Part shown: positions 29,307-29,939 of the stretch, piece by piece
Layout: each line of letters starts with the position of its first letter
Position numbering within the stretch: the first letter of the stretch is position 1
Source of the DNA: Veleropilina oligotropha
Lineage: Eukaryota
Reading direction: 5' to 3'
NCBI GenBank assembly: GCA_048128005.1
Contig: JBEUKZ010000007.1
Span: 62,001-126,000, forward strand
DNA length: 64,000 nucleotides
Notes under the pieces: generated by a model
The model's input: the letters and a program-made list of their open reading frames with translations, nothing else
The model's database searches: none
Told to the model about the DNA's origin: nothing
Position numbers and translations under genes: made by a program

Positions 29307-29939
29307 TTAGTCGCCAGCTCCGATTTTTTTCAGCAGCTCTGCGCGACCCTCTTTACGGCCACGCTCAATAAGCTCGCTTTGGGTCTGTGAAATCGCGGTG
29401 TGCGCCTTCCTACTCTTATCCCGGATTGATGCCTTCATGGCTTGGTATTTCTCCATCTCCCCTGTGACCAGTTGGAATTCATCATCAGACATCACCCCAT
29501 CTGATAAGGCCTTTGAGACGTGGTCGGTTATGGTATTCAGCTTGCTGTCGGCCAGGACTCGAATCTCGTCGTGTTTCTTAGCCTTCACCCCGAGGCGCCG
29601 GCTGATATATTTCCCACCCATACTGGCGAGCCCACACCCTAATGCCGCTAATTCCAGCACTAGGACGACCGGGGCGGCTACAATTGTGGACAGTAGACCA
29701 ATTCCAGCGCTACCCATACCAAGTGTGGCGACGACTAGTCCGTTATCTATTCCGTCAACGACGTTAACACCTCGGCGGTATTTTTTATATAGTGCAGCCC
29801 GTGTGTCCCTCTCTCGTTCTAATTGTCCCTGAAGCTCATTCACTTTCTGTAGTCGGAAAGACTGTGCCTCATGCAGTTCCGAAATCCCATCGCCACCAAG
29901 CTGTGGGTACAGCATTGGCGCTGAGGGTGTGTTGTCCAT
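29307..29939 (-). CDS. Conserved Polinton/adintovirus-type membrane and coiled-coil protein, 210 aa, with N-terminal PSAP and LYPQL motifs
   Basis: FRLQKV..L...LE.E...R..LYKKY.R, a central hydrophobic hairpin and KHDEI..LA.SKLNTI...VSKAL.DG..S..EF. Resembles the family I recall as 'GasderminX' in adintoviruses (from memory, not searched). Confidence 0.75.
   Translation of the reverse strand: MDNTPSAPMLYPQLGGDGISELHEAQSFRLQKVNELQGQLERERDTRAALYKKYRRGVNVVDGIDNGLVVATLGMGSAGIGLLSTIVAAPVVLVLELAALGCGLASMGGKYISRRLGVKAKKHDEIRVLADSKLNTITDHVSKALSDGVMSDDEFQLVTGEMEKYQAMKASIRDKSRKAHTAISQTQSELIERGRKEGRAELLKKIGAGD

Follow-up and report, generated by a model that had tools for sequence, protein, structure and literature searches.

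Paired P(T/S)AP- and LYPxL-type motifs at the tip of a conserved hairpin protein of a Maverick/Polinton-type element: a putative ESCRT adaptor

Two short motifs of the ESCRT late-domain type stand side by side at the start of a small viral membrane protein encoded in the genome of Veleropilina oligotropha, which raises the question of whether they form a docking site for the host ESCRT machinery, and what such a site would do for the virus that carries it. The window analysed here is a stretch of 64,000 nucleotides (NCBI GenBank assembly GCA_048128005.1, contig JBEUKZ010000007.1, positions 62,001 to 126,000 of the forward strand), and all coordinates below are given within it. The gene is an ATG-initiated open reading frame (ORF) located on the minus strand at 29307-29939 (including the stop codon), and its product, a 210-aa late-domain membrane protein, was designated LD210. 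As the preliminary description had stated, LD210 begins with M-D-N-T-PSAP-M-LYPQL, residues 1-14 being encoded by 29898-29939 of the minus strand. The sequence itself and the tails of homologues identify (i) PSAP (residues 5-8; 29916-29927, minus strand) as a P(T/S)AP-type motif and candidate ligand of the TSG101 UEV domain, and (ii) LYPQL (residues 10-14; 29898-29912, minus strand) as an LYPxL-type motif and candidate ligand of the ALIX V domain. The reading frame is considered real because it has 398 homologues at E ≤ 1e-3 in a homologue search and 1272 cluster representatives in a second family search, as well as a confident predicted fold.

The occurrence of the motifs was compared with chance expectation in 200,000 shuffles of the whole LD210 protein. 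P[TS]AP appeared within the first 27 residues at a frequency of 5e-5. The corresponding value for [LIVM]YPx[LIVMF] was 8.9e-4, and no shuffle (0/200,000) had the two combined in this region. Among the 113 ATG ORFs of at least 60 aa found in the six frames of the window, LD210 alone has the motif pair within residues 1-30, and it is the only one of the 15 ORFs of its element that contains P[TS]AP, LYPxL or PPxY at any position. The adjacency of the motifs, previously called notable, thus stands out beyond chance, and as judged by these controls the motif pair is not accidental.

LD210 is encoded by an integrated 15.5-kb element of the Maverick/Polinton type. Comparison of its arms placed the left terminal inverted repeat at 27976-28214 and the right one at 43279-43514; within them, the segments 27981-28214 and 43279-43512 (234 nt) are 100% complementary, and no target-site duplication was evident at the ends of the repeats. 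The element encodes an A32-like DNA-packaging ATPase (34890-35522, plus strand; Pfam Pox_A32, 38.8 bits, above the cut-off) and a retroviral-type integrase (37709-38707, plus strand; Pfam rve, 32.7 bits vs a cut-off of 32.6). The ORF located at 33617-34918 (plus strand) is the probable double jelly-roll major capsid protein (MCP). Its Capsid_N score of 17.7 bits is below the cut-off, and its assignment therefore rests partly on synteny with the related element L006, in which the corresponding module contains an ORF 71% identical to it over 433 aa. A PDB sequence search with the MCP gave no match. No protease family was matched at E ≤ 0.01 by any of the 15 ORFs, so that no adenain-like protease was recognised, although a divergent one is possible.

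The replication protein, with a P-loop of the SF1-helicase type, extends over two ORFs (936 and 340 aa) in different frames (38697-42532, minus strand), the 936-aa ORF matching Pfam Rho_N and AAA_19. Since the helicase gene is split over two frames, this copy of the element may be defective. DNA_pol_B_2 had no match in the ORFs of the window; the syntenic relative L006 encodes this polymerase (pPolB; E 2.1e-15). Replacement of pPolB by helicase fusions is described in a preprint for 'group 2' Maverick-Polintons (10.64898/2026.06.19.733378). The initial label 'Polinton-like virus' was therefore roughly right: Pox_A32, rve, the inverted repeats and the MCP agree with it, but judged by its genes this is a Maverick/Polinton-type element with an SF1-helicase fusion as the replication gene instead of pPolB.

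The ORF adjoining LD210 (236 aa; 30308-31018, minus strand) had no Pfam or PDB sequence match. Its homologues also adjoin those of LD210 in the loci L003 and L006, and it is possibly a minor capsid protein. Three other membrane proteins are encoded by the element, namely tm423, cc407 (with two C-terminal hydrophobic segments) and tm143. The first of these (31023-32294, plus strand) is a conserved 423-aa protein, tail-anchored by a membrane helix at its C-terminus; 829 homologues were found at E ≤ 1e-3, and its AF2 model has a pLDDT of 84.8. It was considered as a fusogen and rejected, as it was not recognised by Atlas (best 0.77), Foldseek (no match) or VIA (best Z 3.3). With no fusogen recognised in the element, a true infectious envelope is unsupported. 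In L006, the gene set comprises tm143, the ATPase, the MCP, cc407, tm423, the 236-aa ORF and LD210. LD210 thus lies in the capsid/morphogenetic module of an integrated virus with a probable double jelly-roll capsid.

The AF2 model of LD210 (pLDDT 91.4, pTM 0.78) shows residues 1-16 as coil with pLDDT values in the 60s, the N-terminal tail being predicted as disordered, and the remainder as three long helices with pLDDT values above 90 (residues 17-82, 86-147 and 152-208), the first two of which meet at residues 83-85. According to the model and the alignment, residues 17-65 (29745-29891, minus strand) constitute a long amphipathic helix that ends in a conserved basic K-K-Y-R-R sequence directly preceding the hydrophobic region; K53 and Y54 are nearly invariant. 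Residues 66-109 (29613-29744, minus strand) form a Gly/Ala-rich hydrophobic hairpin, identified from hydropathy, the AF2 model and the alignment. Kyte-Doolittle windows are positive over about these residues and the nearly invariant Pro90 lies at the turn, which agrees with the central hydrophobic hairpin of the preliminary description. This region is predicted to be either two membrane segments or a re-entrant loop. Residues 110-210 (29310-29612, minus strand) consist of a juxtamembrane stretch of basic character followed by two return helices, which in the model lie against helix 1. They are the best-conserved part of the body, with K119, K122, H123, L129, A130, K133, L134, S142, A144, D147, E154 and E161 nearly invariant in the alignment, and we propose that they may serve as a capsid- or self-binding domain. 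Clusters of K/R flank the hairpin on both sides, and by the positive-inside rule both ends of LD210 would therefore face the cytosol. From these flanks and the predicted structure we infer that the N-terminal tail is probably cytosolic.

LD210 was not placed in any family by Pfam, PHROGs or PDB sequence searches, and a Foldseek search of PDB gave no match at E ≤ 1e-3. Its closest structural matches in BFVD are the uncharacterised invertebrate iridovirus proteins A0A5B8RH66, A0A068QKD3 and S6DF61 (E 4.8e-9 to 4.7e-7, TM 0.61-0.77, 23-28% identity, at least 200 columns), the top match having an E of 4.8e-9, a TM of 0.77 and 28% identity. On these model-based comparisons, the iridovirus proteins are probably true homologues of the LD210 body. 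BFVD also lists Q06VM1 in this iridovirus/ascovirus-like group. BAR-domain and other three-helix bundles retrieved by VIA (best Z 11.8) were dropped, as Z values below about 13 call for caution in helical bundles. Every member of the LD210 family that was seen lies in an assembly of eukaryotic size or in a metagenome contig, and scans of the IMG/VR viral contigs with the single protein and with alignment A3 found no relative, so that free virions are not documented. The nearest clusters are labelled 'Eukaryota, commonest Mollusca' in Atlas, and among the cluster members and the results of two homologue searches the only annotation was a single 'hypothetical protein'.

The proposed check on the ESCRT reading was conservation of the motifs across homologues. 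Motif counts were obtained from the best 120 of the 398 (close) and the best 150 of the 1272 (divergent) family matches, by comparing N-terminal tails with 500 shuffles of the same tails. The scored tails numbered 117 in the close set and 94 in the divergent set, where 55 of 149 representatives were left unscored (6 without a Met start, 36 without the anchor and 13 with tails shorter than 8 aa). The motifs are kept in close homologues: both strict motifs were present in 73/117 close and 30/94 divergent tails, compared to a mean of at most 0.01 and a maximum of 1 in the shuffled tails. Taken singly, P[TS]AP was found in 77/117 and 33/94 tails (shuffle means 1.7 and 0.7) and [LIVM]YPx[LIVMF] in 109/117 and 72/94 (shuffle means 0.8 and 0.5), while the relaxed form [PA][TS]AP was found in 95/117 and 44/94. 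PPxY, as a third late domain, showed no clear enrichment (7 observed vs shuffle means of 4.1 and 2.3, with maxima of 11 and 7), and the motif signal is therefore specific, rather than a reflection of general proline richness.

The LYPxL-type motif is the more constant of the two. Y11 and P12 are at least 90% conserved in alignment A1 (121 sequences) and invariant in alignment A3 (27 sequences), which equals the conservation of the most conserved residues of the LD210 body. Position -1 of this motif is occupied by L (92), I (55), M (8) or V (7) in 162 of 164 cases and position +3 by L in 147 of 164, a residue profile that matches the LYPxL form. Variation is clearly greater in the PSAP-type motif: the tree requires 38 or more gains or losses of P[TS]AP, YPxL is the only motif in 42 of the 182 full-length members, and 25 of 127 family motifs are of the A[TS]AP variant. 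P-T-A-P-P and L-Y-P-[DE]-L are frequent forms in the family. Neither motif is present in 13/182 members, some of which are one-residue near-misses resembling decayed endogenous copies and others simply without motifs.

The arrangement of the motifs is variable. Among the homologues, the tail measures 7-52 aa and the gap between the motifs 0-19 aa. In the divergent set, PTAP precedes YPxL in 20 tails and follows it in 22, and motif architecture has changed at least 53 times on a tree built from the body only (182 rows). With such variable spacing, order and architecture, the tail motifs show the behaviour of short linear motifs. Their codons vary synonymously in the window and 14 loci (TAC and TAT for Tyr, all four codons for Pro and four for Leu), which indicates that selection acts at the protein level.

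The putative recruitment of ESCRT, first suggested in the preliminary description, is thus supported by conservation and architecture. On this evidence we think it rather probable that LD210 serves the virus as a small membrane-bound adaptor, recruiting host ESCRT (TSG101/ALIX) for non-lytic release. In the proposed mechanism, the hairpin (about residues 66-109) would anchor LD210 in a host membrane and leave both termini on the cytosolic side. The disordered tail would present P(T/S)AP to the ESCRT-I component TSG101, at its UEV domain, and LYPxL to ALIX, at its V domain. The helical body and the basic juxtamembrane stretches would keep LD210 at the assembly site, where they would probably make contact with the capsid or with further LD210 molecules. 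Once recruited, ESCRT-III/VPS4 would sever the membrane neck, and the capsids could exit the cell, or traverse an internal membrane, within host-derived membrane and without lysis. LD210 would in this way act like NS3 of bluetongue virus (BTV) or p6 of HIV-1, while being unrelated to both.

Among the alternatives, the one that survives best, although it is unlikely, holds that LD210 is a pore-former or viroporin acting in lysis, ion leak or genome delivery, whose motifs bind ESCRT only for its own multivesicular-body turnover or dosage and not for capsid budding. The hairpin is rich in Gly, Ala and Ser and shows the small-xxx-small pattern common among oligomerising pore-formers, and some of the lower-ranking BFVD matches (E 0.03-0.13) come from giant viruses and carry a SLATT annotation. 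Pfam SLATT_5 was matched by the family member P0248 over nearly its whole body (E 3.4e-6, 27.0 bits vs a cut-off of 29.5), but this sub-threshold score was obtained for only 1 of 121 members, and LD210 itself had no match at E ≤ 0.1. The NS3 protein of Ibaraki virus, a relative of BTV, is reported to be cytotoxic (PMC4710717). However, self-turnover would hardly seem to call for two separate ESCRT-type motifs under such strong selection at the tip, and pore formation would be compatible with the adaptor role, as NS3 is said to do both.

It is distinctly unlikely that the motifs are trafficking or proline-rich ligands, YPxL acting as a YxxPhi signal read by AP adaptor complexes in endocytosis or sorting and P[TS]AP(P) as a target for SH3 or other proline recognition, which would merely steer LD210 to a membrane. 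YPx[LIVMF] formally satisfies YxxPhi and the tails are proline-rich (16% Pro), with Pro following the Leu in 90 of 164 motifs and an extra Pro following P[TS]AP in 59 of 127. In YxxPhi sorting signals, however, the x positions vary and Pro at Y+1 is not required, whereas in the LD210 family Pro at Y+1 is effectively fixed and position -1 is almost always L, I, M or V, both of which are features of ALIX-type LYPxL motifs. Moreover, the second conserved motif is exactly of the TSG101 type and the lack of clear PPxY enrichment also speaks against this explanation, as does the presence of an identical motif pair in HIV-1 p6 (PMC2651531).

A further explanation, which we regard as quite improbable, is that ESCRT is used for internal morphogenesis, i.e. 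for closing or wrapping an internal virion membrane or for budding at the nuclear envelope, with LD210 ending as a component of the virion membrane. The presence of tm423, cc407 and tm143 would suit a lipid-bearing virion, and ESCRT-III is reported to serve nuclear egress of herpesviruses (PMC12456135). Nevertheless, nothing in this analysis shows an internal membrane in the virions. The nearest precedents for small hairpin proteins with N-terminal late domains, NS3 and hepatitis E virus (HEV) ORF3, act in release. Finally, functionless adjacency due to coincidence or phylogenetic inertia can practically be dismissed: both motifs are short and counts from related homologues are not independent, but the pair was absent from all protein shuffles and present in at most 1 of 117 shuffled tails, and the motifs persist while the remaining tail varies in length and sequence, their order swaps and their codons vary synonymously.

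Returning to the adaptor reading, the kept motifs suggest that Maverick viruses leave cells by budding. A broader proposal, to which we give slightly less than an even chance, is that animal Maverick/Polinton viruses, and perhaps the invertebrate iridoviruses/ascoviruses that share the fold, carry a dedicated ancient egress gene encoding a hairpin protein whose sole exposed tip is a TSG101-plus-ALIX docking site, for ESCRT-dependent budding in host membrane. Full-text searches of papers readable without subscription returned no relevant paper in which polinton, Mavericks or adintovirus is linked to ESCRT or late domains. Mavericks/Polintons are described as ranking with the commonest integrated DNA viruses in animals, particularly high numbers being present in bivalve genomes (10.1101/2025.04.19.649669). 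For their route of exit, a conserved TSG101-plus-ALIX docking tip offers a concrete, testable mechanism. If the proposal is true, the Mavericks/Polintons would join RNA viruses, retroviruses and a small number of large DNA viruses as users of late-domain budding. The strategy of HIV p6 and orbivirus NS3 would then have been invented independently in a lineage of DNA viruses with jelly-roll capsids, representing convergent evolution of an NS3-type 'egress adaptor', and these 'transposon-like' viruses would be capable of non-lytic, vesicle-borne transfer between cells and possibly between species.

Several known systems share features with LD210. SLATT_5 (PF18160), a predicted pore-forming effector with two transmembrane segments, has the same succession of helix, two-membrane-segment hairpin and helix, and P0248 aligns to positions 3-136 of the 192 in its profile; the two differ in that this single match is below the gathering score and LD210 has none. 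To our knowledge, SLATT proteins do not carry late domains. In HEV, ORF3 releases non-enveloped capsids inside host membranes through a PSAP-TSG101 interaction. For hepatitis A virus (HAV), quasi-envelopment is described as proceeding via ALIX/HD-PTP and a YPX3L motif of the capsid (10.1101/2022.04.26.489493). Both are RNA viruses with proteins unrelated to LD210, and in HAV the motifs are on the capsid itself.

The same pair of PTAP-type and LYPxL-type motifs is found in HIV-1 p6, in which PTAP and LYPXnL are carried by one short disordered peptide that recruits TSG101 and ALIX (PMC2651531, PMC5011916); the late domain of EIAV p9 is given as YPXnL (PMC4880917). Pfam Gag_p6 had a faint match in 2 of 121 members of the LD210 family (E 0.025). 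However, p6 lacks a membrane anchor and forms the end of a capsid polyprotein, whereas LD210 is a membrane protein in its own right and belongs to a jelly-roll-capsid DNA virus. Tiger frog virus is an iridovirus, one of the large DNA viruses with double jelly-roll capsids, and is reported to bud via ESCRT with proteins carrying YPXnL, ASAP and PPxY, the YPXnL motif binding Alix and the ASAP variant Tsg101 (PMC4880917). The same source treats iridoviruses as enveloped, budding viruses. The ASAP variant is relevant here because of the A[TS]AP motifs in the LD210 family, but in tiger frog virus the motifs are spread over three proteins, VP031L, VP065L and VP093L.

In architecture, LD210 resembles BTV NS3, which is described as having a pair of membrane segments, the first of them preceded by polybasic motifs, together with PSAP and PPRY, and as connecting the non-enveloped capsid to TSG101 to drive non-lytic budding and release (PMC7409164). 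Pfam-A scans of LD210 and 121 family members matched no NS3 family, and the likeness to orbivirus NS3 is therefore architectural only. NS3 comes from an RNA virus, carries PPxY instead of LYPxL as its second motif and has a glycosylated luminal loop of 21 residues, whereas LD210 has almost no loop. The parts of the two proteins follow each other in the same order, i.e. motifs, helix, basic sequence (K-K-Y-R-R in LD210), hairpin, basic stretch and helices.

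The 210-aa ORF at 29307-29939 on the reverse strand (ATG start; LD210, a late-domain membrane protein) has the translated N-terminus M-D-N-T-P-S-A-P-M-L-Y-P-Q-L. PSAP, read from the sequence, occupies residues 5-8 (29916-29927, reverse strand) and LYPQL residues 10-14 (29898-29912, reverse strand), which bears out the preliminary description of an ORF opening with these two motifs; the central hydrophobic stretch claimed there was also found, at approximately residues 66-109. Three controls speak against a chance origin of the motifs. When the whole LD210 protein was shuffled 200,000 times and motifs were scored within the first 27 residues, the frequency was 5e-5 for P[TS]AP and 8.9e-4 for [LIVM]YPx[LIVMF], and the two together were never obtained (0/200,000). 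LD210 alone among the 113 ATG ORFs of ≥60 aa in the six frames of the window combines the two motifs within residues 1-30, and no other of the 15 ORFs encoded by the element around it has P[TS]AP, LYPxL or PPxY at any position.

Searches for LD210 homologues identified 398 at E ≤ 1e-3 among 90% clusters and 1272 representatives of 50% clusters (540 at E ≤ 1e-10), none of which is named beyond the label 'hypothetical protein'. The nearest protein-language-model clusters bear the label Eukaryota, most commonly Mollusca. Motifs were scored in the N-terminal tail, defined as all residues ahead of the conserved Y/F-R-L that opens the first helix. The close set comprised the best 120 of the 398 homologues, of which 117 were scored (3 excluded for no Met start, no anchor or a tail of <8 residues). 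The divergent set comprised 149 sequences listed from the best 150 of the 1272 representatives; 94 were scored, and the 55 excluded (6 without Met start, 36 without anchor, 13 with a tail of <8) were mostly fragments.

In close-set tails, P[TS]AP was present in 77/117 (shuffle mean 1.7, maximum 8) and [LIVM]YPx[LIVMF] in 109/117 (shuffle mean 0.8, maximum 5); the corresponding counts for the divergent set were 33/94 and 72/94. The relaxed pattern [PA][TS]AP (xTAP) was found in 95/117 and 44/94 tails, respectively. The motif pair of the preliminary description is conserved across homologues, both strict motifs occurring together in 73/117 close tails (mean 0.01, maximum 1, in 500 shuffles) and 30/94 divergent tails (shuffle mean 0.00, maximum 1). 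PPxY was not clearly enriched in either set (7 vs a shuffle mean of 4.1 in the close set, 7 vs 2.3 in the divergent set).

The arrangement of the motifs is variable. Tails are 7-52 aa long, with 0-19 aa between the motifs, and PTAP comes first in 89 close-set members vs 3 with YPxL first; in the divergent set the two orders are found in 20 and 22 members. In a FastTree phylogeny restricted to the protein body (182 full-length rows), the architectures were PTAP then YPxL (99), YPxL only (42), YPxL then PTAP (21), neither (13), PTAP only (5) and PTAP on both sides (2), with at least 53 changes of architecture and at least 15 and 38 presence/absence changes for YPxL and xTAP, respectively. P(T/S)AP and LYPxL thus behave like independent short linear motifs. 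Several motif-less members are one residue off, with the remainder of the LYPxL pattern still visible in their tails, as would suit endogenous copies that are dead and decaying. The motif Tyr is encoded by TAC or TAT across the window and 14 loci, and Pro and Leu by any of four codons each; the constraint is therefore on the protein, not the DNA.

The AlphaFold2 model of LD210, with the 121-sequence family alignment as input, had a pLDDT of 91.4 and a pTM of 0.78. Residues 1-16 form a coil with pLDDT in the 60s, followed by helices at 17-82, 86-147 and 152-208, the first two of which make a long hairpin with the hydrophobic stretch at its tip. Close to the turn lies the nearly invariant Pro90, and basic clusters flank the hydrophobic part (K-K-Y-R-R before, K...R-R...K-A-K-K after). 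By the positive-inside rule, both termini should lie on the cytosolic side; the hairpin could cross the membrane twice or form a re-entrant loop. The top Foldseek matches in BFVD were uncharacterised invertebrate iridovirus proteins (E 4.8e-9 to 4.7e-7, TM 0.61-0.77, identity 23-28%). The rank 4 match, Q06VM1, has no name in the result tables; its accession resembles that of an ascovirus entry. Weaker BFVD matches came from giant viruses, in proteins with a SLATT 2TM effector annotation, and one family member gave a sub-threshold Pfam match to SLATT_5. PDB searches returned generic helical bundles only. A faint Pfam match to Gag_p6, the profile of the HIV late-domain peptide, was seen in 2/121 aligned members (E 0.025, far below significance) and is a curiosity in line with the interpretation of the motifs.

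LD210 lies within a GC-rich island (~55% GC) in AT-rich, repeat-rich surroundings (~34-45% GC). The element is bounded by 234-nt terminal inverted repeats at 27981-28214 and 43279-43512 that are 100% complementary, with weaker similarity extending to ~27976 and ~43514; no target-site duplication was evident at their ends. The perfect repeats and the GC contrast with the flanks suggest recent integration. The element encodes a packaging ATPase of the A32 type (Pox_A32, 38.8 bits) and an integrase of the rve family (32.7 bits). Another of its products is probably the double jelly-roll capsid protein, its Capsid_N score of 17.7 bits falling below the cut-off. The replication protein (38697-42532, reverse strand), with a Rho_N-like N-terminus, is split into a 936-aa protein containing an SF1-helicase P-loop and a following 340-aa ORF in a different frame, joining at ~39719-39724; despite its perfect repeats, this copy may be defective.

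Membrane proteins are unusually numerous in the element. A tail-anchored 423-aa protein (31023-32294, forward strand) has 829 matches at E ≤ 1e-3 across such elements; its AlphaFold2 model (pLDDT 84.8, pTM 0.81) had no structural relative at E ≤ 1e-3 in Foldseek against PDB and a best Z of 3.3 in a wide VIA search, and it may be a virion or membrane-associated protein with a new fold. Just downstream of LD210, adjoining the left repeat, a 143-aa ORF (28793-29224, reverse strand) with a hydrophobic signal-like N-terminus, many Cys and no family match may encode a secreted accessory protein. Two further proteins, a 407-aa protein with a coiled coil and two C-terminal hydrophobic segments (32357-33580, reverse strand) and a 143-aa protein with hydrophobic ends (37021-37452, forward strand), share 56% and 64% identity with their counterparts in L006, a metagenome contig carrying a syntenic relative.

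The morphogenetic module of L006 has the same gene order, with 31-74% amino acid identity (ATPase 74%, capsid protein 71%, LD210 53%, a 236-aa ORF 31%). L006 differs in segments 1-1905 and 8672-9946. It has a protein-primed family B polymerase (DNA_pol_B_2, E 2.1e-15) where the window carries the helicase fusion, and, between the homologues of the 236-aa ORF and LD210, a 425-aa ORF matching the phage T7 tail-fibre N-terminal domain (E 1e-11), whose slot in the window (29940-30311) holds an unrelated 123-aa ORF. Thus, replication and fibre genes vary around a common capsid module. Given the module shared with this polymerase-bearing relative, the element is, by its gene content, classified as a Maverick/Polinton-type integrated virus with a helicase fusion in place of the polymerase; such an exchange has been described for animal 'group 2' Maverick-Polintons in a recent preprint (10.64898/2026.06.19.733378).

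The flanks contain ordinary host mobile-element content, namely a GC-rich retroelement with reverse transcriptase (6490-11822, reverse strand; RVT_1, E 7e-19), an ORF matching the GIY-YIG domain (59443-60126, forward strand) and a weak tRNA-like match (46606-46666, forward strand; 31.7 bits). Long satellites are found at 14470-17998 (37-bp unit, 95.5 copies), which accounts for a strong negative GC skew, and at 23356-25071 (43-bp unit, 40.2 copies). Taken with the Mollusca-rich clusters, this flanking content hints weakly at an invertebrate host.

The analysis showed the two motifs and selection maintaining them, a disordered tail, the hairpin and the viral module; we consider it probable that LD210 acts as an ESCRT adaptor for capsid release in host membrane. 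The exposed tail would bind the TSG101 UEV and ALIX V domains, LD210 would contact the capsid, and capsids would be released by budding in host membrane. Because no fusogen was recognised in the element, the confidently modelled 423-aa protein having no match, quasi-envelopment or vesicle release seems likelier than an infectious envelope of the classical kind. Against the adaptor reading stand the lability of PTAP across the family, the 13/182 members with neither motif, the lack of a free viral contig with the LD210 gene among the IMG/VR viral contigs scanned, and the split helicase gene of the window copy. The hairpin might instead belong to a viroporin or pore-former whose motifs control its own sorting only, which seems unlikely. 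It is less likely again that the motifs are YxxPhi or proline-ligand trafficking signals acting without ESCRT. The residue at Tyr +3 (n=164) is L in 147 motifs, I in 11 and V in 6, and that at -1 is L in 92, I in 55, M in 8 and V in 7; the Tyr is accompanied by Pro, Y11 and P12 being among 20 columns ≥90% conserved in the 121-sequence alignment and invariant in a smaller 27-sequence one. Of 127 xTAP motifs, 102 open with P and 25 with A, and a further P comes directly after 59 of them. More doubtful still is that ESCRT serves an internal step, in assembly or nuclear egress, and chance can scarcely be credited with the motif pair.

Late domains are well known, but no dedicated, widely conserved membrane protein bearing them seems to have been described for Maverick/Polinton elements. 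Full-text searches of openly accessible papers returned no relevant link of polinton, Mavericks or adintovirus to ESCRT, and the words ESCRT and late domain are absent from the main text of two recent preprints on the group. LD210 consists of an exposed tail that carries P(T/S)AP and LYPxL, a long helix, a basic stretch, a membrane hairpin, a second basic stretch and conserved helices. This order matches that described for bluetongue virus NS3, in which PSAP and PPRY motifs occur together with polybasic motifs upstream of the first membrane segment, one of two; NS3 links the capsid to TSG101 during non-lytic budding (PMC7409164). The motif pair is that of HIV-1 p6 (PMC2651531, PMC5011916). Tiger frog virus, whose capsid is of the same type as that of the LD210 element, is a DNA virus that buds through ESCRT, and its ASAP variant binds Tsg101 (PMC4880917); the 25 A[TS]AP variants in the LD210 family are therefore less of a concern. 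It is from these likenesses to NS3, p6 and tiger frog virus that the proposed adaptor role of LD210 derives.
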